NCBI GenBank assembly: GCA_045563135.1
Contig: JBJKUL010000001.1
Coordinates: 100,731 to 164,730, forward strand
Origin: Candidatus Actinomarina sp.
GTDB lineage: Bacteria > Actinomycetota > Acidimicrobiia > Actinomarinales > Actinomarinaceae
Direction: 5' to 3'
Length of the DNA stretch: 64,000 nucleotides
Below are positions 7,604 to 55,381 of the stretch, in pieces. The notes below the pieces were generated by a model. The model saw nothing but the letters and a program-made list of their open reading frames with translations, ran no database searches and had not been told where the DNA came from. Numbering within the stretch: position 1 is the stretch's first letter; the number at the start of each line of letters is the position of its first letter. Position numbers and translations under genes: made by a program.

Positions 7604-8141
7604 TATGGACTTTCACCATTGCCGGCCTTAAAAGGCGACTATCAATTTGATATCCTTTTCTTAGAACTTCGCCAACAATTTCCTTCTCTCCATCACCGCT
7701 TTTTTCTACAGCTTCATGATAAGAAGGATCAAAGGGCGCACCTTTTCCTGGCACCTCTTTTACATTAAAAGTATCTAAAAATGCCTGTGCCATTTTATAA
7801 AGCGCAGAAATTTCACCTGGAGTTTCTTCTTGAGCCATCGCTATTTCAAAGTTATCAATCAAGGGAAGTAAGGAAGATATAATCATTGAAAGAGAAGTTA
7901 CTGCACTCATGCTCTTTTCTTTTTCAGCTCGTTTCTTATAGTTATCGAAATCAGCTGCAAGTCTTAAGTAATCATCTTTCATTTTTTCATACTGCTCTAG
8001 TGGAACAGTATGAACTGTAATATCCTCTGAAGTTTCCTCTGAAGTTTCCTCTGAAGTTTCCTCTGAAGTTTCCTCTGAAGTTTCCTCTGAAGTTTCCTCT
8101 GAAGTTTCTAAATTTTCAGAATCATTAACATCCTTACTCAT
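7596..8141 (-). CDS. grpE: Nucleotide exchange factor GrpE with an N-terminal (ETSE)x7 acidic repeat
   Basis: GrpE core at the C-terminus (DNFEIAMAQ...GEVLRKGYQ). It sits between dnaK and dnaJ. The N-terminus is encoded by a perfect 12-nt tandem repeat. Confidence 0.9.
8020..8108 (-). repeat. Perfect 12-nt tandem repeat (about 7 copies) encoding (ETSE)n at the GrpE N-terminus
   Basis: The plus strand reads ctgaagtttcct repeated. Translation gives [12 protein letters not shown].... Confidence 0.9.
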
Positions 8142-9983: not shown

Positions 9984-10187
9984 TTAAATATTTGGTTCTT
10001 GGTCCCTTGATAAATGTCCTCTTACCCTCGGATAGGAGACAGGAGAATGCAAGAAACAAAATTTTTTCTTATTGTAAATACTTATTTGTGTTTCACATGC
10101 TGCAAATTCGCAAACACGACCAGATGTGTATTTTTTAGATCGCCTTACTCCAGGTTTTACTGAAGAAGCTGTTAATGTTCCACTCAT
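9984..10187 (-). CDS. Hypothetical small basic Cys-containing protein (67 aa) immediately upstream of dnaK
   Basis: ORF with a GGAAGG Shine-Dalgarno about 8 nt upstream of its ATG. It ends 33 nt before the dnaK ATG on the same strand. It contains CEFAAC...CFLH. No recognisable family. Confidence 0.3.
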   Translation of the reverse strand: MSGTLTASSVKPGVRRSKKYTSGRVCEFAACETQISIYNKKKFCFLHSPVSYPRVRGHLSRDQEPNI

Positions 10188-17031: not shown

Positions 17032-17862
17032 ATGTTCATTATTAATGGTGCAAAAGTAGAAGAAGCTAATTTTGTTGTTCCAATTCAAAATCTATCCTTC
17101 TGGAGGGGTGATGGTATTTTTGAAGCAATAAAAATTCATGAAGGCTATCTTTTTGCTCTAGACCGCCATATAAAAAGATTTAAGCAATCTGCAAAAAAAA
17201 TGCTGTTTGATGATATCGATTTTGAAGAAATAAAAAAAGATATGATCCTCTTAGCTTCAAACTATGCAGAAGGCTACGTAAGAGTGATAATAAGTAGATC
17301 AACATCAAAAAGTGATTATGATGTTTATATTTTTCACCAAGAACCTGTAGAAATCCCAGAACATTACTCTTTACAATCACAACCTAGTCCATGGCATCCT
17401 GGAGGTGATTTTGCATTAGAAGATAATCAGGTAGTAGGAACAAAATCTACATCATATGCTCTGAACATTGCTCAAACACGGATAGCTGAACAAAATGGAT
17501 ATTCAGATGCTTTGCTTTTAAATAGAGAAAATATAGTATTGGAAGGTCCAACATTCTCAATTGGGTGGATAAAAGGGGACACAGTATATGTTCCAGATTT
17601 ACAACTTGGAATTTTAGATTCAATAACTAGACAATACATCCTTCTTTTTGGAAGCAACAATCAAATTAAGGTTAAGGAGAGTCGGATATCCATTGATGAG
17701 ATATATGACGTAGATACAGTTTTTGTAATTTCAACAGCTAAACATGCAAAGTTTGTTTCTAAAATCGATAGTAAAACATATAACCAGAGCCCAATTTTAG
17801 AGTTAATACAAGACTGTTTTACTAAACAAATTGAAATTGAAAAGTTGAACGAATTTAAATAG
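17032..17862 (+). CDS. Class IV (fold-type IV) aminotransferase (BCAT / D-aa aminotransferase / ADC lyase family)
   Basis: 276 aa. Class-IV motifs include FLFALDRHIKRF and EGPTFSIGWIKGDTVYVP. Confidence 0.7.
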   Translation: MFIINGAKVEEANFVVPIQNLSFWRGDGIFEAIKIHEGYLFALDRHIKRFKQSAKKMLFDDIDFEEIKKDMILLASNYAEGYVRVIISRSTSKSDYDVYIFHQEPVEIPEHYSLQSQPSPWHPGGDFALEDNQVVGTKSTSYALNIAQTRIAEQNGYSDALLLNRENIVLEGPTFSIGWIKGDTVYVPDLQLGILDSITRQYILLFGSNNQIKVKESRISIDEIYDVDTVFVISTAKHAKFVSKIDSKTYNQSPILELIQDCFTKQIEIEKLNEFK

Positions 17863-17866
17863 GAGG
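17861..17866 (+). promoter_or_regulatory. Shine-Dalgarno (AGGAGG) for the true selD start
   Basis: AGGAGGTGAA precedes ATG 17871. Confidence 0.7.
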
Positions 17867-17870
17867 TGAA

Positions 17871-18899
17871 ATGAGACTAACAGAGTACTCCCACGGTTCT
17901 GGTTGAGCTTGCAAATTATCTCCTAGTGAGCTTGCACAAGTTTTGTCGCAATTTAAAAATCATAAAGCTTTAGCTGGAAGTAATGTTTCAGTTGGTTTAA
18001 ATAATCCAGATGATGCTGGAGTAGTTGTTGCTTCGGATAAAAATCTTATACAGTCAGTAGACTTTTTTACACCTGTATTGGACAATCCTTATGACTGGGG
18101 AAGAGTTTCTGCTGCAAATGCCCTGTCTGATATTTACGCCATGGGAGGAGAGCCCTTATCAGCTTTACAATTAGTTTGTTGGCCACGTGACCATTTAAGT
18201 TTCGAAATTCTTGGCGATGTAATTAGAGGAGGCTTAGATGTAATGGAAGAAGCAAAGTGTTCTGTAATAGGTGGTCACAGCATAGATGATAATGAGCCTA
18301 AATATGGTTTCTCAGTAACAGGAACGGCTAATGAAAAGATATTTCTTAACAACACTATAAAAAAGGGGGATAAATTATTTTTATCCAAACCTTTAGGTAC
18401 AGGGATTATATCTACTGCTATTAAAAAAGATTTAACGGATTCGAAAGTTGTAAACGAAGCAACGAAAGTAATGGCAAGCCTAAACAATACGGCATCAGAA
18501 TTTGCACATAATTACAATGCCCATGCTGTAACTGATATTACGGGATTTGGTTTATTTGGCCACTTAAGTGAAATGTTGAAGAGTACTAACTTAGGAGCAA
18601 TTATCAATAGCAAAAATATTCCTGCAATAAATGGTGTAAAAGAACTATTAGAGAAGGGATTGTTTTCATCTGGAAGTCAAAGAAATTTCGAGCATGTTAG
18701 TGCCTCAATAATTGACAATACAGAAGATACAAACCTTATAAAACTTTGTTGCGATGCACAAACTAGTGGAGGTCTTCTTGTAGCCATCCCTGAAAAAGAA
18801 GATGTTAATATTCAAGTAATAAAGGAAACAATGGGGTTAAATCTCTGGGAAATAGGTCAGATTAGTGACCAATATATCGAAAAGATAAATATTATCTAA
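17871..18899 (+). CDS. selD: Selenide, water dikinase SelD. It is a selenoprotein with Sec (UGA) at the Cys17-equivalent position; the N-terminus was missed by the ORF track
   Basis: ATG 17871 is in frame with track ORF 17943..18899. Translation gives MRLTEYSHGSG-U-ACKLSPSELAQVL, matching the E. coli [25 protein letters not shown] N-terminus with TGA 17904..17906 at Cys17. Downstream the protein aligns with SelD throughout (DFFTPVLDNPYDWGRV, TDITGFGLFGHLSEM). Confidence 0.85.
17904..17906 (+). other. In-frame UGA recoded as selenocysteine in selD
   Basis: Codon 12 of the extended selD frame. A tRNA-Sec gene is present in the same window. Confidence 0.8.
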
Positions 18900-27516: not shown

Positions 27517-27780
27517 ATGGATAGTAAAGTATGGGCTTGTCCCAAGTGCAACACATCATCTGTGGTGATTGCAAAAAAAGACAAAGACAGAAGCAGAGAT
27601 TCAATTTCTCAACCACATACAAGTGAAACAGTTTCAATGACAAGTGGGGGTTTTACTAAGTTTTTCAATGTTCAAAATCAAAAGTTCTTAGTTATTACAT
27701 GTAGCAAATGTTCATATTCAGAATTTTATCGTTCTGAAGTTAAGGCTTGGGAGTCTATAATCGACTTTTTTGGTAACTAA
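27517..27780 (+). CDS. Zn-ribbon nucleic-acid-binding-like small protein (DUF2082-like)
   Basis: CPKC ... CSKCSYSEFY, two Cys pairs flanking a low-complexity linker. Confidence 0.5.
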   Translation: MDSKVWACPKCNTSSVVIAKKDKDRSRDSISQPHTSETVSMTSGGFTKFFNVQNQKFLVITCSKCSYSEFYRSEVKAWESIIDFFGN

Positions 27781-38498: not shown

Positions 38499-39325
38499 AT
38501 GAATTTCTTTTTTCGATAACCTATCCGCCTATACCAATTACACAAATTGGACCTGTTGCCTTTTCTTTACATGGAGTATTTGCTGCAGTCGGTTTTTATT
38601 TTGGATCAACTTACGCGATTAAGTTATGTGTGAAAGATGGAAATGATGACCAGCTATTTTCAGATGCTTTTACCTGGGCAATTTTTGGTGCAATAATTGG
38701 TGCGAGATTTTTTACAATACCTGCTCACATAGGAGATCCAGGCTATGGATTAGATGATGTATTTTCAGTAGCAGGTAGTTATTCAATTATGGGTGGTATG
38801 TCAGGAGGTATTATCGCAGCATATTTGAGGATTGTAACAGTAGGTAAAGCAAACTTTCAAACTTATAGTGATTATGCTGCCCCAGGATTAATTATGGGTA
38901 TTGCTATTGGAAGAATAGGGGACCTAGCAATTGTTGAACATTTAGGAAGAGCAACTGATTTTATGTTTGGTTACGAAATCAAGCCTGGGTATGATGTAGC
39001 TCCGCAACACAATGCACTTGAATGCTTTGCTCCCGAGATTACTTGCGGAACCTATCACCATGTTGCAATGTACGACCTTATTCTTGCAACTCTTTTCTTT
39101 TTTGTATTTAGATACTTACAAAAGAATCTAAATTTTGGGAGTGGTTCTTGGATTGGTCTATGGGCAATCTGGTATGGTGTTCAAAGAATGATACTAGACA
39201 CACTCAGGTTTGGCATGGGTGATGCAACTATCGGCATATTTACTTGGAATCAGATTGGTGGTGCAACCCTTGCAAGCATTGGACTGCTGGTCTTTTTACG
39301 ATTTAAGAATATTAAAACAAGCTAA
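38471..39325 (+). CDS. lgt: Prolipoprotein diacylglyceryl transferase-like
   Basis: Polytopic with a GIAIGRIGDLAIVEHLGR motif resembling the Lgt GRxGNFxNxE signature. The exact start is uncertain because it overlaps the ctaB 3' end. Confidence 0.55.
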   Translation: MDIEGNSCMNEFLFSITYPPIPITQIGPVAFSLHGVFAAVGFYFGSTYAIKLCVKDGNDDQLFSDAFTWAIFGAIIGARFFTIPAHIGDPGYGLDDVFSVAGSYSIMGGMSGGIIAAYLRIVTVGKANFQTYSDYAAPGLIMGIAIGRIGDLAIVEHLGRATDFMFGYEIKPGYDVAPQHNALECFAPEITCGTYHHVAMYDLILATLFFFVFRYLQKNLNFGSGSWIGLWAIWYGVQRMILDTLRFGMGDATIGIFTWNQIGGATLASIGLLVFLRFKNIKTS

Positions 39326-40235
39326 ATATAAATAACGAATACGCACCCAGCATTGAGAAACCTACAAGGGAACTTCTTTTTACTGTGCTCCTTGAAAAGA
39401 TTATCACCATTAAAGAGACAAAGTACATCATAAACATCTGAATTAAAACATCTGATTCAATATTTCCTGGTTGGATAACAATAGAAGCACCACCTACAAG
39501 ACCAATATTAAAAAGATTTGAACCAAAAATATTTCCAAAAACTATATCTGGTTTTTTCAATCTAGCGGCAGCAATAGTTCCAGCTACTTCTGGAAGACTT
39601 GTTCCAAGCGCAACCACTGTAACTCCAATTATTAAAGATGATATTCCAAATAATTCAGCTAAATCTATTGCATTATTTACTACTAGTGAGCTCCCAAAGA
39701 TTGTTGCACCTAAAGATAATGCAGCTTTTGGCCATACATTTGTTATTGTTTCTTCCATAAACTCTTCATCCTCAATAGCTTCTTCATTTACTAATTTATA
39801 TGTGATTGCTACAACAAGTATTAATAGAGTGATGCCTAATATAAAAGGAAATTCATTAATCAAAATATAGCTGGATACAAAAACTGTTGTCACAACCATC
39901 ATCCACAAGGCAGATGTTGGGTTAAGATCTATTTTTTTATTGTATGAAGTATCAATAAACAAATACAACACAGCAACCACAAGTAATGAGTTTGCAATAT
40001 TTGAACCAATTATGTTGCCTATTCCTAAAGATAAATTTCCATTTAATGCAGCACCTGTGCTCGCAAATAATTCTGGAGCTGAGGTTCCAAAACCAATAAA
40101 CGTAGCTCCAATAATTGATGGAGGTATTTTTAACTTTAGTGCAATTTGAACAGCAGATTTGACCATAACATCAGCACCCTTAACCAAAAGAATGAACCCA
40201 GCCGCGAGGCCCAAAAGAATAACTAAAATATCCAT
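39312..40235 (-). CDS. Ca2+/Na+ (CaCA family, YrbG-like) antiporter
   Basis: Two alpha-repeats: GFGTSAPELFAS and LGTSLPEVAGT. Confidence 0.8.
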   Translation of the reverse strand: MDILVILLGLAAGFILLVKGADVMVKSAVQIALKLKIPPSIIGATFIGFGTSAPELFASTGAALNGNLSLGIGNIIGSNIANSLLVVAVLYLFIDTSYNKKIDLNPTSALWMMVVTTVFVSSYILINEFPFILGITLLILVVAITYKLVNEEAIEDEEFMEETITNVWPKAALSLGATIFGSSLVVNNAIDLAELFGISSLIIGVTVVALGTSLPEVAGTIAAARLKKPDIVFGNIFGSNLFNIGLVGGASIVIQPGNIESDVLIQMFMMYFVSLMVIIFSRSTVKRSSLVGFSMLGAYSLFIFSLF

Positions 40236-40241
40236 CAGATC

Positions 40242-41060
40242 TTAATTTTTTGAATCTCTCCAAGCTATCCACTCTTTAACATCTGTAAGGTCATAGCCTG
40301 GACCATTTACTGCCAGAGTAACTTCTGTTGCGCCTGCTTCTATAAGTTCGTCAGCTAGGTCGATTCTTTTAATATCAATCCCAATGGATCTTTTAATTTC
40401 ACTTGGATCCCTTCCTATTTCTTTACACCAATTATTTAAAACATTATTTTTATGAGCGACAGTTTCTATACCAGACCTTTCTTCAGTTTTTGTTGCAAAG
40501 CCATGCCATATATCTGCATATTGCGCTGTAATTCTTAGAGTAACTTTCTCTCCACCGCCACCAATTAAAATTGGAATCTTTCTTATTGGTTGTGGATTAA
40601 GTTCTTTCATTCTTTTTACAATTCTTTCCAAAGACTTTTCTAACGCATGAAGTCTTGAAATAGCCGTACCAAACTCATAACCATATTCGTCATAATCTTG
40701 CTCAAACCAACCAGAACCAATTCCTAAAATTGCTCTCCCGTTTGATATATGATCAACAGTTCTAGCCATATCTGCTAATAGTTCAGGATTTCTATAAGAG
40801 TTACAGGTAACCAGGGGACCAATATCTACCTTGCTAGTTACTTCTCCCCAGCTTGAAAGCATTGTCCAGCACTCGAAATGCTTACCTTCTCTTCTTTCAC
40901 CTTCATTCCACTGAGTACCATCTTCTTTATACAGTGGATAAAAATGATCCCAGTTATAAATCGCGTCTGCTCCAATTTCCTCAGCCTCAATTGCTGCTTG
41001 TCTAATTTGATCATACTCAGCATGTTGGGGTTGTAAAAAAACGGCTATTCTAGGTTTCAT
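40242..41060 (-). CDS. LLM-class (luciferase-like) flavin/F420-dependent oxidoreductase
   Basis: 272-aa TIM-barrel LLM family. The N-terminal pattern resembles F420-dependent LLM subfamilies, but cofactor assignment is inference. Confidence 0.65.
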   Translation of the reverse strand: MKPRIAVFLQPQHAEYDQIRQAAIEAEEIGADAIYNWDHFYPLYKEDGTQWNEGERREGKHFECWTMLSSWGEVTSKVDIGPLVTCNSYRNPELLADMARTVDHISNGRAILGIGSGWFEQDYDEYGYEFGTAISRLHALEKSLERIVKRMKELNPQPIRKIPILIGGGGEKVTLRITAQYADIWHGFATKTEERSGIETVAHKNNVLNNWCKEIGRDPSEIKRSIGIDIKRIDLADELIEAGATEVTLAVNGPGYDLTDVKEWIAWRDSKN

Positions 41061-41080
41061 TTTTAACTCCTGTTCCTGTA

Positions 41081-43618
41081 TTAATTGTCTAAGATTTTAT
41101 CATCCAAAGAATTATTGATACGTTTTACTAATTCCATATTAGCTTCAAGCTTCTCTAATTTTTGCGCCATCATTTTTTCTGCAGAAGGCAGGGGATTCTC
41201 TAGGATAAATGTTCTTATATCCTCTCCTAAATCTTTATCATATATTGAGTCAAGACCTGAAAGAATTCTTGATGCAGTCCATTCAGGCATAACTGATAGC
41301 AAACCTTTATAGTTATTTTTGATTTCCTTCCATGATTTTTTACCATTCACCTTGTTAGTAATCATCGATGCCAGAATATATGGACAATCAGCACCTCTGA
41401 TTGTTCCATCCAGCATTGACTTAATTATCTTTTCACCAGCATTAGGGTCTCGTACGGCACCGAGTATTGCTCTGTATCTGCCTTCGATCTGAGGTGAACC
41501 AGCATTTAAGAATTTTTCAAGAAAATGTTCGATTTTGATTTCTTCATCTAGAGCTGAAAGATAAAGGGTTGTATTGTAAAAGCTTCCATCTTGAATGGTT
41601 TCAATTGATCCATCCTTAAACTTACTACTGTAGAAATTAATAAAATCAGCATCATTTTCTATTGATCCAATTAATTTATTTACTATTGCTCTAAGCTCTT
41701 TAACTTCCATTGAATCAGATTCTCTTACTTCACGACCCAGGTTTTCTTTTATAGGACCAATTAGCTTATTAAAATAATTTAAAAAAGAATCACTTTTTTC
41801 TACTGGTAAAATTTTTGAAAGTGAAGAAATTATTCCGGCAATATATGACCAAATATTTGGATCTGTCTCTGATTTATAAAGAGGCAAAAATTCTAAAAAA
41901 TCGTTTATTGAAAATTTATCAACAGTTACTGATTTCCATGTGTCCTCCAGCAATCTATACTTTTCAAGAGAGTTTAATTCCTTAAAGTTGTCTTTAATTT
42001 TTGAAAAAATTTCTTGACTATAAACTACGTGGTAGAAAGCCCAGCCGCCATTGTTTATAAAAGGTACTTCACCAAGTGCTTCTAATTCTAAATTCTTTGA
42101 ATTTTGTACGACAGTATTTATCTTGCCATTATCTAGAAAGCGAACATTTACTGGTATTTCCCATAATGAATTATCAGTACTTCCATCAATCAGAAATTTA
42201 GATTGGGTGAGTTCAAACTTTTCACCAACCTTTTGTACTTCAATAATTGGAAAACCAGGTTGTTTAATCCAGGTAGGCAACATCTTGTTTAGAGGTATAT
42301 TGCTTTCTTCAGTAAGGCAATCCCACAAGTCCGATGAATGCGTGTTCTGAAATTTGTATTTATTTAAGTATTTCTGTACACCCGCTTGAAATACTTCTTC
42401 TCCAACAAACATCTCAAACATTTTTAAAACTGTTGACCCTTTTTCGTATGTAAGAACATCAAACATTTCTTCAGCTTGTTCAGGGGTTTCAACCTCAAAC
42501 TCAACCGGTCTGGAGTTTTTAAGCGAATCGACACCAAAGCCTGCACTTCTAGATAAATTCATTTCACTCCATTGTTCGAATTCAGGGTAAGTCCCATTTG
42601 CGGCAATAGCCTCCATCAGACTGGCAAAAGCTTCGTTTAACCAGATACCATCCCACCACTTCATAGTTACTAAATCCCCAAACCACATATGTGCAAGTTC
42701 GTGTGCAATTACACTTACAGATCTTGATAGCTCTTGTCTAGTTGCTTTAGATTCGTCGATGAGAAGCAAGCTTTCTCTGAAAGTAACTGCACCTACATTT
42801 TCCATTGCACCCATTGCAAAATCAGGTATAGCTATGAGGTCAAGTTTCGAACCTGGATAAGGAATTTTATAATAGTTTTCAAAAAACTCTAATATTTTCA
42901 ACCCAGCTTTTCCGGCAAAACCTGTTTGATGTGAAAAACCAGGCCTATGAATAATTCTTATTTGTGTGTTACCTACATTTCCAATTTCTGTAATCTCAAG
43001 TTCTCCAATTACAAAAGCTACTAAGTATGTAGACATTATCATTGAATCCACATAAGTAGTTTGGACTTTCCCATCTTCGAGTTCTTTTTCTTCAAGAACT
43101 TTTTCATTTGATATTCGTAGATATTTTTTATCAGAAATTAATGTCATTGAAAATACTGCTTTATATTCTGGTTCATCCCAGCATGGAAAAGCATTTCTTG
43201 CTGATGTTGGTTCAAATTGAGTTGTTGCGAGCCATTTTTCATTATTATTTAAATCTAAAAACTGACTTTTATAAAATCCTTTTAAATCATTTGTGATATT
43301 TGAGGTAAATTCAAGTTTTAGAGAGTATGAGCCAATTGAAAGAGTGTTTTTAGAAATGAAAGAAATTCTTTCTAAATCTCTTAAATATTCACAATCTAAA
43401 CTAATTTGAGATTCGTTTGAATCAACTAAGTAAGCATTTGTTATCTCTATATCAATTGCATTTACTTCAAAAGAAGAAGTTTCTTCAACTATCTCTAAAT
43501 CAACAGTTTGAGAACCCTTGTAATTAAAGCTATCCAAGTCAACATCTAGCTTGACTTGATATCTTACGGGTTTAGCGACCTTTGGTAGCAGTGCTTTATT
43601 CATCTTTTCTCCAATCAA
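41081..43618 (-). CDS. pepN: Aminopeptidase N (M1 family)
   Basis: GAMEN (FAMGAMENVG), HELAHMWFGDLVT (HExxH) and a downstream WLNEAFA Glu. Confidence 0.92.
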   Translation of the reverse strand: MIGEKMNKALLPKVAKPVRYQVKLDVDLDSFNYKGSQTVDLEIVEETSSFEVNAIDIEITNAYLVDSNESQISLDCEYLRDLERISFISKNTLSIGSYSLKLEFTSNITNDLKGFYKSQFLDLNNNEKWLATTQFEPTSARNAFPCWDEPEYKAVFSMTLISDKKYLRISNEKVLEEKELEDGKVQTTYVDSMIMSTYLVAFVIGELEITEIGNVGNTQIRIIHRPGFSHQTGFAGKAGLKILEFFENYYKIPYPGSKLDLIAIPDFAMGAMENVGAVTFRESLLLIDESKATRQELSRSVSVIAHELAHMWFGDLVTMKWWDGIWLNEAFASLMEAIAANGTYPEFEQWSEMNLSRSAGFGVDSLKNSRPVEFEVETPEQAEEMFDVLTYEKGSTVLKMFEMFVGEEVFQAGVQKYLNKYKFQNTHSSDLWDCLTEESNIPLNKMLPTWIKQPGFPIIEVQKVGEKFELTQSKFLIDGSTDNSLWEIPVNVRFLDNGKINTVVQNSKNLELEALGEVPFINNGGWAFYHVVYSQEIFSKIKDNFKELNSLEKYRLLEDTWKSVTVDKFSINDFLEFLPLYKSETDPNIWSYIAGIISSLSKILPVEKSDSFLNYFNKLIGPIKENLGREVRESDSMEVKELRAIVNKLIGSIENDADFINFYSSKFKDGSIETIQDGSFYNTTLYLSALDEEIKIEHFLEKFLNAGSPQIEGRYRAILGAVRDPNAGEKIIKSMLDGTIRGADCPYILASMITNKVNGKKSWKEIKNNYKGLLSVMPEWTASRILSGLDSIYDKDLGEDIRTFILENPLPSAEKMMAQKLEKLEANMELVKRINNSLDDKILDN

Positions 43619-44987
43619 TGTGTATGTATTCGTCTGAACTTAAAAGCTGTACAGTATGACTCCCAAAAAAATCTCTCTGAGCTTGAATTAGATTTGATGG
43701 GTTGTCACTAGAACTCAAGTTAAGGTACCAATTCAAGCTTGAAGAAAAAACTGGTAGCGCAATATCTTTTGACAACGCATCTCTAACCAAGTTTTTGACA
43801 GCATCCAGATTTACTTTAAGTAAACTATGCAATTCCTCTGATCGTAAAAAGTCTTCTGAGGTGTCGTCAATTTTAATTAATTCATCGAGCATCTCAGACC
43901 TGATAATACACCCACCACTCCAGTTCTTAAAAATATCTACAAAATTAAATGAAAATTTATTAACTTCGTTGTAACTCCAAATTATTGTGAGACCTTGAAT
44001 CATTGAAGATATTCTTCCAAAGTATAAAGACCTTGCCACTAAGTTAAATATCTCTGTTTTTTCACTACCTTGAGGACCTACTGTATTGTCTTGTTTAAAT
44101 AATTTTTCGTCAAGTTTCCAATAATCACCGGCATTACTTTGAACTCTTGCATCATAAGCTGCAAATATTGAGGGGGCAGTTATACCTAAATCAAGAGCTG
44201 TTTCCACTGTCAATCTTCCAGTTCCTTTGTTGTTTGCAGAAGGTTTTATTAAATCAATGATAAATTTCTCTCCCTCTTTTTTCCTAAGTATTTCGGATGT
44301 AATTTCAATCAGATAAGAAGATTGATTCAAGATTTTAAGGGAGTCAAAAAAATCTGCTATCTCTAGATTTGTATATCCTGATTTTTTTAATAGAAAGTAG
44401 CTTTCAGCAATTAGTTGCATTTCTGCATACTCGATCCCATTGTGGACCATTTTTACGAAATGACCTGAACCAAATCCCTCGTAGAAACCTATACAGGCAT
44501 CTGCAGCTTTTGCTGAGATTGATGACAATAAATCAATCAGATTCTCATCAAGATTTTTATTTGAACCGACCATTATGGCAGGACCATTTCTTGCACCCTC
44601 TTCTCCACCCGAGACACCCATGCCAACAAAGTTTATTTTTTTCTCGGCTAGTGAATTTCCATGATTAATACTTTCTTGATAAAAAGAGTTACCACCATCG
44701 ATAATGACGTCACCTTCATCTAATAAATCAGAAAGTTGATTAATGATGTTGTGAGTAGGTTCCCCAGATGGAATCATTAATAAGATATTTCTTGGACGAG
44801 CAATATTTTCAACTAACTCCTTGAGGGTTGTGTACCCTGAAAAATTGGTACCAAACTCTTTTTTTATAGAGTCTAATTTTTCAGTTGAAGCATTATAAGC
44901 CTTAATATTTGTACCTTTTTCGGAGATATTAAGACCAATATTTTTACCCATTACACCGAGTCCGATTAATCCAATTTCACTCAGCAT
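43596..44987 (-). CDS. gnd: 6-phosphogluconate dehydrogenase (decarboxylating)
   Basis: IGLIGLGVMGKNIGLNI NADP-binding motif. 463 aa with the 6PGD C-terminal domain. Confidence 0.85.
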   Translation of the reverse strand: MLSEIGLIGLGVMGKNIGLNISEKGTNIKAYNASTEKLDSIKKEFGTNFSGYTTLKELVENIARPRNILLMIPSGEPTHNIINQLSDLLDEGDVIIDGGNSFYQESINHGNSLAEKKINFVGMGVSGGEEGARNGPAIMVGSNKNLDENLIDLLSSISAKAADACIGFYEGFGSGHFVKMVHNGIEYAEMQLIAESYFLLKKSGYTNLEIADFFDSLKILNQSSYLIEITSEILRKKEGEKFIIDLIKPSANNKGTGRLTVETALDLGITAPSIFAAYDARVQSNAGDYWKLDEKLFKQDNTVGPQGSEKTEIFNLVARSLYFGRISSMIQGLTIIWSYNEVNKFSFNFVDIFKNWSGGCIIRSEMLDELIKIDDTSEDFLRSEELHSLLKVNLDAVKNLVRDALSKDIALPVFSSSLNWYLNLSSSDNPSNLIQAQRDFFGSHTVQLLSSDEYIHIDWRKDE

Positions 44988-46308
44988 TTTGTGGATCCCT
45001 TATTAAATTTAAATCTTTCAATTTTGTGATCAATTTACTTCTTATTTTTATATCAATTAATAATAATTCAGAACTATTTTTTACTTCCAGAATTTCACCG
45101 AATCTATTTACTTTGTCTAAGTTTTTTGGTTCAACTAAAAAAGAGCTCATTTGGGTGTCCCCATAGATTTCTGTTGAAATCTTCTCAATAAGTTCTTCTA
45201 TACCAATGTTTTTTAATGATGAAATAAATAAAGCTTGAGGGTATCTTTCTGATAGGTCATTTAATGAAGCTTGGTCAATTCTATCAACTTTATTAAATAC
45301 CATCACTTCATTGGCTGTTACTTCAATTTGTTCAAGAATTTCTCGAACAGTGCCAATATGCATTTCAGGAATTGCTGTTGCAGCATCAACTACATGAATT
45401 AATAAATCTGCGCTCGTAGCAACTAGTAGCGTAGATTTGAAAGACTCAATTAATGTAGTTGGCAGGTTTTGAATAAACCCAACAGTGTCTGATAATATCA
45501 ACGGCTCTTGTATATCTTTAATAGGAAGCTCTCTTTGCAGTGAGTCCACAGTAGCAAATAGTTCATCAGCAGCATATGCATCAGAATTAGTCAATGATTT
45601 TAATAGAGTTGATTTCCCAGCATTTGTATAACCAACTATAGAAACCAGTGGAGTATTTTTTTTCTCTCTTGAGCTTGCTTGTAGAAGCCTTTGTCTTTCT
45701 ATTTTTTTAAGCTCTTTCCTCAGTTTGTTAATCCGATTATCTATCAACCTACTATCAGTTTCTAGTTTTGCTTCTCCAGGTCCTCGTGTCCCGATTCCTC
45801 CACCTTGTTGATTCAAGGTTTTGCCTAAACCTGCAAGTCTGGGTTTTAAATAGACGGACATTGCAAGTTCAACCTGTAAATTTGCCTCTTTAGATTGGGC
45901 GTGTAAAGCAAATATATCAAGAATTAGACCAGTTCTGTCAACCACGTCACACTGAAAAATAGCCCGAAGCTCCTTTTGTTGATTGGGGCTAAGTTCACAA
46001 TCAAAAACAACAACATCAATATCATTTGCCTTTGACAGGTCTTCAAGTTCAATAATCGAGCCTTTGCCAATAAAAGTTTTTGGATCAATTCGATCAATTC
46101 TTTTGGTCTGGATAATAGTTGGATTTGATCCAGCTGTTTTTACCAGACTTGTGAGTTCTTTTAATGATTCTTCACGATCTGCCCTTGTTTGATTTTTTAA
46201 AATAATTCCAACAAGCAAGGCTTTTTGCACTGTTACAAAAATATCTTTGTCAGATACCGTTAGTAACCGTCTGTCAGTTTGATTAGGATTATTATTTCTT
46301 TGATTCAA
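44977..46308 (-). CDS. hflX: GTPase HflX
   Basis: HflX N-domain plus G-domain (VGYTNAGKSTLL, DTVGFI). Confidence 0.85.
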   Translation of the reverse strand: MNQRNNNPNQTDRRLLTVSDKDIFVTVQKALLVGIILKNQTRADREESLKELTSLVKTAGSNPTIIQTKRIDRIDPKTFIGKGSIIELEDLSKANDIDVVVFDCELSPNQQKELRAIFQCDVVDRTGLILDIFALHAQSKEANLQVELAMSVYLKPRLAGLGKTLNQQGGGIGTRGPGEAKLETDSRLIDNRINKLRKELKKIERQRLLQASSREKKNTPLVSIVGYTNAGKSTLLKSLTNSDAYAADELFATVDSLQRELPIKDIQEPLILSDTVGFIQNLPTTLIESFKSTLLVATSADLLIHVVDAATAIPEMHIGTVREILEQIEVTANEVMVFNKVDRIDQASLNDLSERYPQALFISSLKNIGIEELIEKISTEIYGDTQMSSFLVEPKNLDKVNRFGEILEVKNSSELLLIDIKIRSKLITKLKDLNLIRDPQNAE

Positions 46309-46361
46309 CTATTTAAGAGTATCCAAAATTTTTTTATATGAAAGATATATTTTTTGAATGT

Positions 46362-46456
46362 TGGCGGAGGTGGACGGGAATCGAACCCGCCAAAGACTTT
46401 TACACCTTTCACCAGTTTTGAAGACCGGGGAGCCCACCAGGCGCTCATTCACCTCC
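46362..46456 (-). tRNA. selC: tRNA-Sec (selenocysteine tRNA, anticodon UCA), 95 nt including encoded CCA
   Basis: The reverse complement reads GGAGGTGAATGAGCGCCTGGTGGGCTCCCCGGTCTTCAAAACTGGTGAAAGGTGTAAAAGTCTTTGGCGGGTTCGATTCCCGTCCACCTCCGCCA. The anticodon arm CCGGT/CTTCAAA/ACTGG gives U33-UCA-A37. Acceptor plus T helix total 13 bp (7+6 or 8+5), the discriminator is G, the variable arm is about 20 nt and the T-loop is TTCGATT. Confidence 0.8.
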
Positions 46457-46508
46457 ATTATTAAGACTAATTGTATAAAAAATTTTATATTGAATACAAT
46501 TATGTATT

Positions 46509-47105
46509 ATGGAAAACTTTTCGTCATTGTTTATGAGGCTTAAAAAAGAAAGAGGCTTATCTAACAAGCAAATAGCATCATTTACTGGTGCAAAACTTAA
46601 AGAAGTAAAAAAGTGGGATGCTGGTACAAGTTTTCCTACAGACAAAAAAGTTATCGTTGCACTTGAAGGTTTGCTGGGTAAAGAAGTCATGGATACACTT
46701 GAAGATCTATCAAGTTATGATCAAGTCACAACAAACTCTACTAATGTTGAAGATTCATTATTTAATATTGATAGAGATAAAAAGGTTGAATTAAAATCAG
46801 GCATCTTTAATAGGTTTAAATCTGAAAAACAGGAAACAAAAGATATCCCTCAACCTGAACTATTTACTTATGAGAATATCCAAGACACGGAAGATATTTC
46901 TGACTTTGAAGCAGATGCACAAAAAGAAACTTTTGAGACAGCCCTTGACGAAAAACCATATATAGAGGATTCAAAACAATTCAGTTTTTACCTAACAAGG
47001 AATATGAAAACATTTTTTACTCTTCTTGCTATAAGCGTACTAATAGTTCGTGGATTTAGATTATTTTTAGATTCTATGAAAATTATTATCGATAACTTAT
47101 TATGA
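46509..47105 (+). CDS. XRE-family HTH protein with a C-terminal membrane anchor (RodZ-like topology)
   Basis: N-terminal Cro/C1-type HTH (LKKERGLSNKQIASFTGAKLKEVKKWDAG), an acidic linker and a single TM near the C-terminus. It overlaps ctaA by 4 nt. Confidence 0.55.
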   Translation: MENFSSLFMRLKKERGLSNKQIASFTGAKLKEVKKWDAGTSFPTDKKVIVALEGLLGKEVMDTLEDLSSYDQVTTNSTNVEDSLFNIDRDKKVELKSGIFNRFKSEKQETKDIPQPELFTYENIQDTEDISDFEADAQKETFETALDEKPYIEDSKQFSFYLTRNMKTFFTLLAISVLIVRGFRLFLDSMKIIIDNLL

Positions 47106-48004
47106 CTTTGTACAAACTGAGCAGAGCAGGCTTAGGATTTTCTATTTTATCCATCATTGCAGGAGCAGTTGTAAGAGCTACTGGTTCTGGAAACGGATGT
47201 GGCTCATCTTGGCCAAGTTGTAATGGTCAATTAATACCATCCCTCAATTCCGCATCAGAGCAGATTGAGTTTTCACATAGAGCTATTAGTGGATTATTAC
47301 TTGTTATCACATTAATTATATTCTTAAAATCCTTTAGCTCATCAGTTACTCCGCCGCAAAAAAGGATTATTAATTATCTGACATTTTTTGTATTATTCGA
47401 AGCTCTAATTGGAGCTGTTATAGTTTTGTATGAATGGGTTGGTATGAACAGCTCTACACCTAGGATAGCGGCAGTCCCTCTTCATCTAGTAAATACATTT
47501 GGACTACTTGCTATGTATGCAATCCTCTTCAAGGTATCGAAGAATCCAGAAATCCAAATAAGTGATTGTATTGATAGAAATTTTAAAATTGCAACAGGTT
47601 TATTTATACTTGCTGGAGCAACTGGGTCAATTACAGCACTTGCAGACGTATTATTTCCTAGCGAATCTTTTATAAGTGGTTTGATTGAAGATTTTGACTC
47701 TACATCTGCCTTATTAACAAGGTTGAGGATTACACACCCCCTAGCCTCAACACTCCTATCAATTTTTCTATTTAGCGAATCAAATAGATTTAAAAAGCAA
47801 TATGGCATTAGAACTTTCGAAATAAAAGTTTTAGTTATTTTGGGTGTAGGTTTAGGAGTCTTAAATGTGTTATCAAATATCAACTTATTGTTAAGCATAA
47901 TTCATTTATTAACAGCAGATTTACTTTGGATTACATATATATATAAAACATTAGAAAAAAGTACTAAAGTTCTAGAAATACCAAATAATTCCAGTATCGA
48001 TTAG
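47102..48004 (+). CDS. ctaA: Heme A synthase (CtaA/COX15, type-1 with loop Cys pair)
   Basis: 8-TM protein. The first extracytoplasmic loop carries GNGCGSSWPSCNG, matching the B. subtilis CtaA GCPDWPLCNG motif. Conserved His residues sit in the TM helices. Confidence 0.65.
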   Translation: MTLYKLSRAGLGFSILSIIAGAVVRATGSGNGCGSSWPSCNGQLIPSLNSASEQIEFSHRAISGLLLVITLIIFLKSFSSSVTPPQKRIINYLTFFVLFEALIGAVIVLYEWVGMNSSTPRIAAVPLHLVNTFGLLAMYAILFKVSKNPEIQISDCIDRNFKIATGLFILAGATGSITALADVLFPSESFISGLIEDFDSTSALLTRLRITHPLASTLLSIFLFSESNRFKKQYGIRTFEIKVLVILGVGLGVLNVLSNINLLLSIIHLLTADLLWITYIYKTLEKSTKVLEIPNNSSID

Positions 48005-48074
48005 GTTTATATCAAAAATATGTTTATCCTTACATTTCTGTAACTAGAAATGATAATTAAAGGTCAAATTACTA

Positions 48075-49130
48075 ATGGTAACTAAAACAATACCGGCAAA
48101 GCCAAAAACTTCTAAAATGGAAGAGCAGATTGCTGTTGATGAAGAAAGCTTAACTCCTGAACAAGAAGCCGCGGCAAAAGAGAAAGCTAAATCTTTAGTT
48201 AAAAAGCTTGCAGACGATAAAGGAAAATTAACAACTGATTTAGTTAGTCAATACCTAACAGCAATAGGTAACTTTGATCTATTAACTGCGGAGCAAGAAG
48301 TAGAACTTGCTCAAAAAATTGAATCAGGTGAAAAAGCTTCTATTAAACTTCAAAAAAAGCAATTTAAGGATAAAAAAGGTGAAATAAGACTTAAAAGAGA
48401 CAGGAAAAAAGGTGCTGAAGCCAAAGATGCTTTTTTGACAGCAAACCTTCGACTTGTAGTCGCAAATGCTAGAAGGTATGCAAACACTTCAGGAATTGAT
48501 TTTCTAGATTTAATTCAAGAAGGTAATCTAGGTTTGATTAGAGCTGTGGAAAAATTTGACTGGAGAAAAGGGTTTAAGTTTTCTACTTATGCAACATGGT
48601 GGATTAGACAAGCTATTACAAGAGCGATTGCTGATAAGTCAAGAACCGTTAGAATCCCAGTTCACCTTCATGACACAATGGCAGCAGTCAGGGCAGCACA
48701 GGCTCAACTAAAAGCTGAATTAGGTAGAGATCCAAAACCACAGGAAATTGCGAAAGAAGCTGGAGTAGGTGTTGATAAAGTTGAACTTGCCTTAAGTGTT
48801 GCTGACACAGTTTCTCTTGAGCAACCAGTAGGAGAAGATGGTGCACAATTAGGAGACTTCATTCAAGATGAGGACGCCAGTGACCCATCTCTTATTGTTC
48901 AAGACCTAGATGTTGCTGAAAGTTTAAGAGATAGTATCAGTAGGCTTCCTGAGAGAGAAGGAAGAATTTTAGCTTTAAGATATGGCTTCTATGACGGTGT
49001 ACCCAGAACACTTGAAGAAATTGGTGAAGAGTTTGATTTAACTCGAGAAAGAATTAGGCAGTTAGAAAAATTAGCACTTTGCCGTCTTAGACATCCTTCA
49101 TTTGGAATCAGAGAACAAGACTTAGTTTAA
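48075..49130 (+). CDS. sigA: Principal RNA polymerase sigma factor (RpoD/HrdB-like)
   Basis: Lys/Glu-rich N-terminus and conserved regions 1.2-4.2 ([53 protein letters not shown]). Confidence 0.9.
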
Positions 49131-49179
49131 ATCACGCAAAGAGTTTCTAAATTTCTCAAACAATTGTTAATCTATAAAC

Positions 49180-50616
49180 ATGTTTGATTTACTCAATATT
49201 GCTATTGATTCTGCAATAAATTCTGGCGCAAGGTATTCAGATGCAAGAATACTGGTCTCGAAGTCTCGAAGTATTGCAGCTAAAAATGGTGAAGTAGAGA
49301 ATTTTAATGAGTCTGAAAAAATTGGACTAGGTATAAGAGCTTTAGTAGGATCTTCATGGGGTTTTTATTCAACTTACAACTTATCAAAAGAATCACTAAT
49401 CTCCTCTGGGAAAAAAGCATTTGAAATAGCAAAAGCCTCCGCAGCTGTCTCAGGGAAAGAAACACCTTTTGCTGATGTTCCTGTAGTAAAAGATGAATAT
49501 ACAACCCCTCATGAAGAGAACCCCTTCAAGGTATCATCAACAGAGCAAATTGATTTATTAGTAAATTCAACAGAACAAATGAAAAAATTTGGTAGTTCAA
49601 GATCATCTGGACGTCTTGATTTTTGGGATACTGAAAAATGGTTTTGCTCAAGTCAAGGCCATGAAATTTTTCAAAATATAATCGAGTCTGGAGGAGGCAT
49701 ATCATCCTTGTCTGTAGGAGATGGCGAAACACAGATAAGGTCTTATCCACAATCCTTTGGAGAATACAGAACTGGCGGATGGGAAGTAGTAAAATCATTT
49801 GAATTTGAAAATCAAACACAGAGATTAGCCGAAGAATCCCAGAGGCTCCTAGTTGCACCTCAATGTCCAGAAGGAACAATGGATCTTATTTTAGAAGGCA
49901 GTCAATTAGCTTTGCAAATTCACGAATCAGTAGGACATGCAATAGAGTTAGATAGAATTCTTGGTTGGGAGGCTGCATACGCTGGTACATCTCATTTAGA
50001 ACTAGATAAATTAAATAAGCATAAATATGGCTCAGAATTAATGAATATAGTTGCGGACGCAACCCTTCCTGGTGCATTAGCAACATTTAAGTATGACGAT
50101 GAAGGAACCCCAGCACAGCGTGTTGACATTGTTAAAGAAGGAATATGGACAGGAGTTTTATCTGGAAGAGACAGTGCAGCAATCGCAGGAGTAAAACCAG
50201 GAGGGATGGTTAGAGCAGACGGTTTTGCAAGGCTGCCAATGGTAAGAATGACTAATGTCGGACTGCTACCAGGCGAATCGTCTTTAGAGGAAATTATTGA
50301 ATCTACAGACAATGGTATTTATATGGAGACAAACAGATCATGGTCAATAGATGATTTGAGATTGAATTTTCAGTTTGGGTGTGAGGTAGGCTGGGTTGTA
50401 AAAAATGGAAAAATAATCGACATGGTTAAGAACCCAACCTATACAGGGATAACACCTGAATTTTGGGGAAACATGGACATGCTTGCTAATGAAGATGAGT
50501 GGGTATTTTGGGGTACTCCAAATTGTGGAAAAGGTCAACCAAGTCAAATTGGTCACACTGGACACCCTGCTTCACCTGCCAGATTCAAAAATACAAGAAT
50601 TGGAGTTAGAGGTTGA
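49180..50616 (+). CDS. tldD: TldD-family metalloprotease
   Basis: 478 aa with an HESVGHAIELD zinc-binding motif. It is followed by a PmbA paralogue. Confidence 0.8.
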   Translation: MFDLLNIAIDSAINSGARYSDARILVSKSRSIAAKNGEVENFNESEKIGLGIRALVGSSWGFYSTYNLSKESLISSGKKAFEIAKASAAVSGKETPFADVPVVKDEYTTPHEENPFKVSSTEQIDLLVNSTEQMKKFGSSRSSGRLDFWDTEKWFCSSQGHEIFQNIIESGGGISSLSVGDGETQIRSYPQSFGEYRTGGWEVVKSFEFENQTQRLAEESQRLLVAPQCPEGTMDLILEGSQLALQIHESVGHAIELDRILGWEAAYAGTSHLELDKLNKHKYGSELMNIVADATLPGALATFKYDDEGTPAQRVDIVKEGIWTGVLSGRDSAAIAGVKPGGMVRADGFARLPMVRMTNVGLLPGESSLEEIIESTDNGIYMETNRSWSIDDLRLNFQFGCEVGWVVKNGKIIDMVKNPTYTGITPEFWGNMDMLANEDEWVFWGTPNCGKGQPSQIGHTGHPASPARFKNTRIGVRG

Positions 50617-51938
50617 ACACCTGGTCAGAGCTGCTCGAAGATTTACAGAAACATATTCCAAGTAGTGTTGAATGTGAAATAAAGATGATGCACTCTAAAA
50701 GTGCATTAACTAGGTTCGCAAATTCACATATACATCAGAATGTTGATGAGGAGTCTGCAGATATTTTTTTGACAATACATAAAGACGGTAAAACTATTTC
50801 TAGGTCAAAAAATATTACAGCTATTAAGAATTCAAAAGATTTTGTAAAAGAAGCTCTCGACTCATTAGAGAAAAGTCCTAAAGATACAACTTGGGCAGGA
50901 CTTACCGGTAAAACAGAATCGTATGAAGGTTTTCAAAAAAAGCGTGAATCAAGCCCTGAGGAAAGAGCAAATTTAGTAAGAGATTTTGTTGACGAAGGAA
51001 AAGAAATGAACGCTGCAGGATATTGTTCAACATATTTAAATAATTTCTTTATTTGGAATTCAAATGGGCTAAATTCATCCGACACCTCATCAAGTGCATT
51101 TATTGATGGAATATTTAGAACTAATACTTCCGCTGGTTCATCTCACAGGGGAGCTGTAAATATAAATAATTTAGATGCCTCAGAAACAGGAAAGGAGGCA
51201 GCAAAGTTAGCGGTTGACAGTCAAAACCCAGTAGATATTGATCCTGGAAAGTATGAAGTAATCCTTGGCCATGAAGCCGTAAGCACTATATTGGTTTTCC
51301 TGTCCGTTTATGGGTTTAATGCAAAAAGTAAGATTGATGGGATGAGTCCGATTTTACTAAATCAAAATCAATTTGATGAAAAAATTAATTTATTTGATAC
51401 ACCTGAAGATGAAGAATCCATTGGTTTTAAAATTGATGCATCTGGGGCAAAGAAATATAATTTAGAAATTATTAAAAATGGAGTGCCAAATACTTATTTT
51501 CATACCAGAAGGACATCTAAAGAATTAAATATGGAAAATACTCACCATGAATTTTTTGGAGTTGATGACTATTTTGGAGGGATAGGTACGAACTTGAGCC
51601 TTAATAAAGGCAATGCAAGTGAAAAAGATATGATTTCTAGTGTTAAGAAAGGAATTTATATCAACGAATTTTGGTATTGCAGAGTACTAGACCCAATAAC
51701 ACAGGTTGTAACAGGCTTAAATAGGAATGGCTCATTTTTAATTGAAAATGGAAAAATTACAAAACCAATTGGTCGACTTAGATTCACCCAAAGTTTTATA
51801 ACTTCTTTAAGTCAGGGAAATGTCATTTCAGTAGGAGATACATCCAGATATGCTGACTCTGAATTTGGAGAAGGGATGTTAAAAGTTCCAAAATTACATC
51901 TAAAAGAATTTAATTTTACAGGTGGTGTCTCTGGTTAA
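50613..51938 (+). CDS. pmbA: PmbA/TldE-family protein (TldD partner)
   Basis: 441 aa of the TldD/PmbA fold, lacking the HExxxH motif. It overlaps tldD by 4 nt. Confidence 0.7.
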   Translation: MNTWSELLEDLQKHIPSSVECEIKMMHSKSALTRFANSHIHQNVDEESADIFLTIHKDGKTISRSKNITAIKNSKDFVKEALDSLEKSPKDTTWAGLTGKTESYEGFQKKRESSPEERANLVRDFVDEGKEMNAAGYCSTYLNNFFIWNSNGLNSSDTSSSAFIDGIFRTNTSAGSSHRGAVNINNLDASETGKEAAKLAVDSQNPVDIDPGKYEVILGHEAVSTILVFLSVYGFNAKSKIDGMSPILLNQNQFDEKINLFDTPEDEESIGFKIDASGAKKYNLEIIKNGVPNTYFHTRRTSKELNMENTHHEFFGVDDYFGGIGTNLSLNKGNASEKDMISSVKKGIYINEFWYCRVLDPITQVVTGLNRNGSFLIENGKITKPIGRLRFTQSFITSLSQGNVISVGDTSRYADSEFGEGMLKVPKLHLKEFNFTGGVSG

Positions 51939-54262: not shown

Positions 54263-55381
54263 ATGAACTTAGAGTTACTGAATCACGGATTTATTCCAGA
54301 AGAAATTTGCTATAAGCTCCCCGAAACATTCTCAGATGTTGAGAAGTTAGCACTCGAATTACCTAAAGTCCTTGCTAATGAACAAATTGAAGCCAGAGTT
54401 TTAAAACTTGAGGCTGAAAAAGATGTTGATACCTTAACAGGACCTCAATTAGAGAGGGCAATGCTTATCTACTCATATATTGGTCATGCTTTCATGTGGG
54501 GAAAAAGTAATGATAAAAATCTAATACCACTTCAGATTGCTAAAACATGGCATAAAATTTCTATCAAATTAGAAAGACCTCCAATTCTTTCTTATGCATC
54601 CTACGCACTTAACAATTGGAAAATGTTAGATTCTTCACAACCGTTTGATCTAGAAAATATAGTTATAGTTCAGAATTTCTTGGGAGGGGTCGATGAGGAT
54701 TGGTTTATCATGATTCATGTGGCCATAGAATATGAGGCAAAAGAAATATTATCCTCCCTTAATAAATATTTTTTTGATTCAGGTGATGCATCAAATCTTG
54801 AGGACGCTTTAAAAAGTATAAAAAAAATAAACCATATTATGAATCGAATGCCTGAAAAGTGTGATCCGTTTATTTACTACAATCGTGTAAGACCTTATAT
54901 TTTTGGATGGAAGAATAATCCAACAACACCAGAAGGAGTTGTTTACGAAGGAGTTGAGGAATATGATGGAAAACCTCAGATATTTAGAGGTGAGACAGGA
55001 GCTCAAAGTTCAATTGTCCCTATGTTAGATGCCTTATTAGGAGTAACTCACTCTGATGATCCATTGAAAGAATATTTAGATGAAATGAGGCTATATATGC
55101 CAAAGGAACACAGAGACTTACTAAATAATCTAGATGCCTGGTCACAAACTGAGAGAAGTGTAGTCGTTGAATCAAAAGACAGTAAGGATAAAAATTTAAT
55201 TGATGAAATTATTAAAGAGGTACATGTTTTTAGAAACAAGCATTTGGAGTATGCAAGAATTTACATATATGAACAGTCGTTAACTAATGACTCTAATTCA
55301 AATATTGTGGGAACTGGTGGTACGCCATTTATGAAATATCTTGATAAACACCTTCAGGAAACAGTCCCTTCAAATGATTAA
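54263..55381 (+). CDS. Indoleamine 2,3-dioxygenase-like heme dioxygenase
   Basis: FRGETGAQSSIVPMLDALLGV matches the IDO signature GGSAGQSSxxQxxDxLLG. The length (372 aa) and all-helical composition are consistent. Confidence 0.55.
   Translation: MNLELLNHGFIPEEICYKLPETFSDVEKLALELPKVLANEQIEARVLKLEAEKDVDTLTGPQLERAMLIYSYIGHAFMWGKSNDKNLIPLQIAKTWHKISIKLERPPILSYASYALNNWKMLDSSQPFDLENIVIVQNFLGGVDEDWFIMIHVAIEYEAKEILSSLNKYFFDSGDASNLEDALKSIKKINHIMNRMPEKCDPFIYYNRVRPYIFGWKNNPTTPEGVVYEGVEEYDGKPQIFRGETGAQSSIVPMLDALLGVTHSDDPLKEYLDEMRLYMPKEHRDLLNNLDAWSQTERSVVVESKDSKDKNLIDEIIKEVHVFRNKHLEYARIYIYEQSLTNDSNSNIVGTGGTPFMKYLDKHLQETVPSND

Follow-up and report, generated by a model that had tools for sequence, protein, structure and literature searches.

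In bacteria, the pathway of selenocysteine (Sec) insertion begins with SerRS, which charges a dedicated tRNA with serine and recognizes the long variable arm and G73 of this tRNA as identity elements. SelA then converts the seryl-tRNA to Sec-tRNASec, for which SelD supplies the selenophosphate, and SelB delivers the Sec-tRNASec to UGA codons that precede a SECIS hairpin. Actinomarinales are among the most abundant bacteria of the ocean surface and have genomes of ∼1.1 Mb. Such abundance, combined with genomes of this size, makes retention of the Sec pathway ecologically interesting, a point that has already been made (10.64898/2026.04.03.716425).

The closest described case is found in the same clade. 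According to the preprint 'Actinomarina, resolved' (bioRxiv April 2026, 10.64898/2026.04.03.716425), selC and selD are present in 84/84 complete genomes, every Actinomarina genome has a tRNA-Sec with a UCA anticodon, and about five selenoproteins are predicted per genome, including a Sec-SelD family described as 'MRLT*, 342-346 aa'. The same authors report that these selenoproteins are missed or truncated by gene callers and that Rfam SECIS models fail on them, and they infer that about half of the genomes carry SelD with Cys instead (10.64898/2026.04.03.716425). As to genomic context, they describe selC as taking up variable positions with respect to a hypervariable region, with tRNA-targeted integration as a possibility, and find no gene adjacency to be universal; hflX is not mentioned (10.64898/2026.04.03.716425).

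Here we analyse a stretch of 64,000 nucleotides from Candidatus Actinomarina sp., referred to below as the window. From its sequence and that of its relatives, we consider it very probable, close to certain, that the window carries a bacterial-type selenocysteine tRNA gene, selC, of Candidatus Actinomarinales (OCS155), with selD as its UGA-containing client in the same window. The selC described here is an ordinary textbook element, and use of Sec in the clade has been reported before (10.64898/2026.04.03.716425). What our analysis adds is minor, namely the linkage of selC with hflX and an invariant palindromic block upstream of the tRNA gene.

The tRNA gene and its covariation in relatives

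The original prediction placed a 95-nt tRNA on the minus strand of the window. ARAGORN calls tRNA-SeC with anticodon tca at identical coordinates, 46362..46456 (-), and reports it as the sole tRNA in the 64 kb; the 95 nt include G73 and an encoded CCA. The covariance-model search that had been suggested as a check agrees with this call. Rfam model RF01852 (tRNA-Sec) matches at 46366..46456 (-) over its full length (1-91/91) with 75.3 bits and E 1.2e-13, the gathering score being 47. When the whole window is compared with Rfam 15, this is the only family over threshold, and it is also the best in the tRNA clan.

The individual features read from the letters are all found at the expected places. 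The anticodon loop CUUCAAA lies at 46417..46423, with TCA at 46419..46421; both the free-energy fold and the Rfam alignment give a 7-nt loop closed by a 5-bp stem, and the loop is invariant in 11 distinct relatives. The G73 discriminator is present and is followed by the encoded CCA, and the T-loop TTCGATT occupies 46379..46385. The variable arm is indeed long, a 21-nt region made of a 5-bp stem and an 8-nt loop. Folded alone, the selC RNA adopts a Sec-type cloverleaf at -36.1 kcal/mol.

Canonical tRNAs have an acceptor plus T stack of 12 pairs. The 13 stacked pairs claimed for the present tRNA are recovered both by the free-energy fold (7 + 6) and by the Rfam alignment (13 levels). Their partition can be read in two ways: a bacterial 8/5 split leaves A.C as a mismatched 8th acceptor pair, and the free-energy fold gives 7+6 instead. 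The A8.C84 combination of the 8/5 form is found in 11/11 sequences, and the alternative G66-C84 pair of the 7/6 form is equally invariant, so that covariation favours neither. The D-stem has the 6 bp and the 4-nt loop (UGGU) that had been named as a check, though with one bulged G, so that the D-arm reads GAGC-g-CC / GG-GCUC.

Relatives were retrieved by their HflX, one genome per GTDB species, which gave 39 loci. The closest of them come from MAGs and SAGs labelled Candidatus Actinomarinales, Actinomarina or OCS155, with HflX identity of 77-91%, which assigns the window to this clade. The window tRNA is identical to that of the five loci L001-L005. The covariation set comprises 11 distinct tRNA sequences, two of which come from other Acidimicrobiia and serve as an outgroup (L035 and L036). 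In the cloverleaf alignment 95.9% of cells are paired, compared with 43-55% once the pairing partners have been shifted by 1-3 columns, and double changes occur at 8 pairs, compared with 0-3 after such shifts. These eight are the acceptor pair U6-A, which becomes C-G, three pairs of the anticodon stem and four of the variable arm. It is in the outgroup that four of the five variable-arm pairs are altered on both sides; G73 is invariant. The acceptor (except U6-A), D and T arms do not vary, and covariation is neutral with respect to them, including the six D-stem pairs. As read from these alignments, the Sec-specific architecture of the tRNA is maintained by compensatory evolution. The agreement of two independent programs, together with the covariation in relatives, thus upholds the assignment to tRNA-Sec rather than tRNA-Ser or tRNA-Leu.

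The 3' end of the gene differs between species. CCA is encoded (GCCA, 46362..46365) only in the window and in L001-L005, and other Actinomarina species (L007-L027) have GCTA at the tRNA-Sec 3' end, so CCA addition would be needed there.

It had also been proposed that the tRNA is masked by a spurious open reading frame on the opposite strand. A 61-aa plus-strand frame, 46358..46543 (+), does exist mechanically; the masking itself is not borne out, as no public protein set contains the frame. A collection of ∼15 billion predicted proteins does not contain this exact sequence, and in the same collection the exact HflX of this locus occurs on 517 contigs and its divergent neighbour on 465. There is thus no sign that gene callers use this frame to mask the tRNA.

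The in-frame UGA of selD

A tRNA-Sec implies that some UGA codons of its genome are read as Sec, and standard gene calling will truncate or miss the genes that contain them. One such gene lies in the window. The frame 17943..18899 has an in-frame TGA before it, and reading through this TGA extends the protein to an ATG at 17871, with the N-terminus MRLTEYSHGSG-U-ACKLSP. The complete gene, selD for selenophosphate synthetase, covers 17871..18899 (+), has 342 codons and carries the ribosome-binding site AGGAGGTG upstream of its ATG. The TGA is codon 12 (17904..17906, +), in the context SHGSG-U-ACK.

With Cys in place of U, the 342-aa product passes the equivalog profiles for SelD (selenide, water dikinase), with 370.6 bits for TIGR00476 (cut-off 125) and 335.5 bits for NF002098 (cut-off 299), and the profile match starts at residue 1-2. 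Its best matches among solved structures are 3U0O (E 2.8e-75) and 2YYE (E 4.5e-65). The alignment to E. coli SelD (3U0O) runs from residue 1 and puts U12 on the catalytic Cys17 and K15 on Lys20; U12 also aligns to the Sec13Cys position of Aquifex aeolicus SelD (2YYE). Codon 12 is TGA in 20/20 sequences, that is, in the window and in 19 metagenomic relatives with protein identity of 77-99%, and the Sec form of selD thus appears universal among the sequences sampled. Since Sec takes the catalytic site, SelD, the source of the selenium donor, would itself need Sec insertion. TGA is the ordinary stop for 12 of the 56 window ORFs and is therefore not reassigned. Decoding of UGA as Sec by this organism, which had been claimed from the tRNA, thus finds support in a second gene of the same window, with a conserved TGA at the catalytic Sec/Cys position.

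It could be argued that the tRNA is instead a UGA suppressor, a type II tRNA similar to allo-tRNAs that inserts serine or another standard amino acid at UGA with no conversion to Sec. We regard this as very unlikely. The conserved acceptor A.C mismatch and the bulge in the D-stem are slight departures from the textbook form that such a reading could draw on, as is the lack of selA and selB in the DNA examined. Neither gene was found in the 64-kb window, and exact-protein look-ups up to 10 kb past either window end met with housekeeping genes only. The PLP-lysine motif of SelA and the G1 motif GHVDHGKT occur nowhere in the window plus 64 loci (0.9 Mb), and NCBIfam models found nothing relevant to selA or selB near selC in the two outgroup loci. 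Against the suppressor reading, the Rfam Sec model is the best in the tRNA clan and scores 28 bits over its gathering score, and the 13-pair acceptor/T stack, 6-bp D-stem and G73 are hallmarks of tRNA-Sec. The only UGA client in the window, moreover, has its codon at the Sec/Cys site of SelD, the very enzyme that makes the selenium donor. Finally, selA is reported in 84/84 complete Actinomarina genomes, and selB there is divergent, its best score of 268 falling below the KofamScan threshold of 306 (10.64898/2026.04.03.716425). For the Sec pathway proper, SelA and SelB would accordingly be encoded elsewhere in the genome, as the preprint indicates (10.64898/2026.04.03.716425).

Public databases contain this SelD in another form. 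The expectation that ORF-based annotation truncates selenoproteins is confirmed by entries in NCBI, JGI and ENA, which hold a 318-aa SelD that starts after the UGA, at TTG 17943. This form is found on hundreds of contigs (among the entries are MCH1415435.1 and NND23707.1, 'SelD [Candidatus Actinomarina sp.]') and is without the 24 N-terminal residues, which include the catalytic Sec and Lys. The truncated protein passes as a complete gene because the first alternative start lies just 24 residues in. One ENA translation has W at codon 12, since the table with TGA=Trp was applied. Apart from that copy, all public SelD copies of this lineage that we examined are 318 aa long and without the catalytic Sec loop.

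Directly downstream of the Sec codon, 63 nt (17907..17969, +) are constrained at synonymous sites and are a putative bacterial SECIS. Synonymous diversity in selD amounts to 0.27 over codons 2-11, to 0.09 over codons 13-33 and to 0.38 over codons 34-342, which makes it about 4-fold lower in the 21 codons past the UGA; among all 21-codon windows of the gene the minimum starts at codon 10. Low synonymous diversity is what an RNA element that overlaps coding sequence would be expected to leave, and this nucleotide-constrained stretch may thus mark the site of the putative SECIS of the clade. For segments of 47-131 nt around the selD UGA, folding energies give z-scores of -0.5 to +0.6, which does not set them apart from shuffled sequences. 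RNAalifold on nine distinct sequences predicts a 14-pair hairpin that starts at the G of UGA; there are no double or compensatory changes in it, and two of its pairs are broken in the sequence of the window itself. With Rfam, permissive scanning of 17800..18100 returned no SECIS; the matches, to a snoRNA and a CRISPR repeat with E 2.9-4.6, are at the level of chance.

These data also bear on the possibility that the selD TGA is a true stop, in which case the real SelD would have 318 aa from TTG 17943 and selC would have different clients or no client at all. We find this extremely improbable. The hairpin signal after the TGA is indeed thermodynamically not significant, and the 318-aa form is indeed the one present on hundreds of public contigs; those entries, however, are plain output of gene callers that treat TGA as a stop. 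A 318-aa protein would be without the glycine-rich loop that carries the catalytic Sec/Cys and Lys, whereas the profile match to SelD begins at the very N-terminus of the long form. In addition, the protein is conserved over codons 1-11 although their synonymous sites vary, and AGGAGGTG stands ahead of them. The reading of codon 12 as Sec is thus the one that we retain.

A second dip in synonymous diversity (∼0.10) is seen at selD codons 326-340 (18846..18890), before the start of the next gene at 18905. It may reflect the ribosome-binding region of that gene or translational coupling. A selenoneine cluster around selD was considered and rejected, as the neighbouring GT4 glycosyltransferase reaches 49 bits against the SenB cut-off of 300 and the other neighbour of selD is an alpha/beta hydrolase.

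Among all window ORFs interrupted by TGA, none besides selD is a credible selenoprotein gene, selD alone having a coding sequence on either side of the TGA in a plausible context. Two large intergenic gaps contain one ORF each, neither with an in-frame TGA. The first, 27517..27780 (+) in a 346-nt gap, codes for a zinc-ribbon protein of 87 aa with four Cys (Pfam Zn_ribbon_13/DUF2082, 68 bits). The second, 9984..10187 (-) in the 400-nt gap upstream of dnaK, is a 67-aa ORF with no Pfam match; 67-aa Pfam-less genes stand at the equivalent position in L067 (2179..2382) and L068 (2303..2506), matched by position and length alone. Two further genes of the window may be mentioned. GrpE (7596..8141, -) has six SEET repeats in a run at its N-terminus, which looks variable, grpE being called at 128 or 185 aa in related contigs. 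The gene at 54263..55381 (+) belongs to the indoleamine 2,3-dioxygenase family (PF01231 IDO, from precomputed Pfam assignments of identical contigs) and adjoins an alanine dehydrogenase gene.

The selC-hflX locus and its upstream block

The original prediction put selC upstream of hflX, and the downstream gene is HflX by TIGR03156 (407.9 bits, cut-off 216.75). This gene, for a ribosome-associated GTPase, occupies 44977..46308 (-); its TTG start codon is conserved in relatives, and the exact 443-aa protein is present in NCBI as HflX. Between the two genes lies an AT-rich spacer of 53 nt (46309..46361, -), which measures 47-53 nt in relatives and is not conserved in sequence.

The arrangement holds throughout the order. 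In 27/27 testable species representatives of Actinomarinales, ARAGORN places selC on the strand of hflX and ∼50 nt upstream of it; the 28th locus, L006, begins inside hflX, has no upstream DNA and was left out of this count. A 10-gene block, 39312..51938, keeps its gene order in each of the 28 Actinomarinales loci over the length that the contig covers, which in loci with full flanks means at least 6 kb per side. Its order is pmbA-tldD-sigA-ctaA-ORF on one side and selC-hflX-gnd-pepN-LLM oxidoreductase-Na/Ca exchanger on the other. More distant Acidimicrobiia keep hflX-gnd-pepN and have no selC there. Being embedded among core genes, selC does not lie at an island junction, and its fixed place beside hflX in a collinear core block argues against a mobile selC. 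That selC is a decaying relic or the non-functional remnant of a mobile-element attachment site, as the variable position and tRNA-targeted integration suggested in the preprint (10.64898/2026.04.03.716425) might allow, is scarcely conceivable, since the acceptor (except U6-A), D and T arms do not vary anywhere in the order, the other changes are compensatory, and the same genes flank selC on both sides in 28/28 loci within the reach of each contig, with hflX directly 3' and no island.

Upstream of the tRNA, a 20-nt block, TTTTTATACAATTAGTCTTA (46462..46481, -), extends from -25 to -6 relative to the 5' end of the tRNA and is invariant in the alignment of 21 distinct Actinomarinales loci. It includes a -10-like TACAAT (46470..46475, -), and TTGTAT is found 18 nt further upstream. 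A scan for consensus promoters did not list the block, because its -35 matches at just 3/6 positions.

The alignment of loci further reveals an inverted repeat, AATTGTAT-N17-ATACAATT, at 46469..46501, whose left arm has a G-to-C change in L002-L005. Each strand of it reads TTGTAT-18 nt-TACAAT, the minus strand towards selC and the plus strand towards a divergent ORF, 46509..47105; the same hexamers on the other strand therefore point at this ORF. The ORF has no match in Pfam or NCBIfam. In every lineage its ATG stands 8-9 nt past the -10-like hexamer, a distance that suggests a leaderless mRNA. The inverted repeat is a putative bidirectional promoter or operator.

Taken together, selC would be transcribed from the invariant block with TACAAT, 6-25 nt upstream. 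Since no terminator-like hairpin or site was found in 44800..46800, the transcript would read through into hflX, and the tRNA would then be freed by RNase P and 3' processing. Co-transcription of hflX with selC is thus probable. A more far-reaching proposal can be formulated, in which selC and hflX form an order-wide unit, with tRNA-Sec and HflX, a ribosome-splitting GTPase, co-regulated from a palindromic promoter/operator shared with the apparently leaderless 46509..47105 and with a tRNA built on a 7/6 or an A.C-mismatched 8/5 stack. As a whole, we consider this unlikely.

Comparison with described systems

The tRNA shares with bacterial tRNA-Sec (E. coli selC, RF01852) the UCA anticodon, G73, 13 acceptor plus T pairs, an extended D-stem with a 4-nt loop and a long variable arm. 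E. coli tRNA-Sec is also 95 nt long with its encoded CCA, the same length as here. The present tRNA differs in the conserved A.C at the 8th acceptor pair (or a 7/6 stack via G66-C84) and in the bulged D-stem G. Read from sequence, this acceptor geometry and D-stem, the palindromic block and the apparent selC-hflX unit are the unusual points of the locus, all of them minor.

A known precedent for the gene arrangement is the E. coli thrU-tyrU-glyT-thrT-tufB operon, in which tRNA genes are co-transcribed with a translation-factor gene. Both loci have a tRNA directly upstream of a same-strand gene for a translational GTPase, with no terminator between. The two differ in that the partner here is HflX, the tRNA is selC and co-transcription is proposed from the gene layout. 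The literature that could be searched gave no description of selC being linked with hflX.

The selD gene resembles that of Aquifex aeolicus (PDB 2YYE/2ZOD, Sec13Cys), which likewise has Sec in place of the catalytic Cys of the N-terminal glycine-rich loop. Sec-containing SelD is also described for other bacteria and archaea by Guimaraes et al. 1996, as cited in 10.64898/2026.04.03.716425. Within the clade, the 342-codon MRLTEYSHGSGU... gene of the window matches the Sec-SelD family of the preprint (10.64898/2026.04.03.716425). Our results depart from that description in two respects: in place of a Cys form in about half of the genomes, we find TGA in 20/20 selD sequences sampled, and whereas no adjacency was held to be universal, selC-hflX and the 10-gene block around it are collinear in 28/28 of the Actinomarinales representatives retrieved (10.64898/2026.04.03.716425 for comparison).
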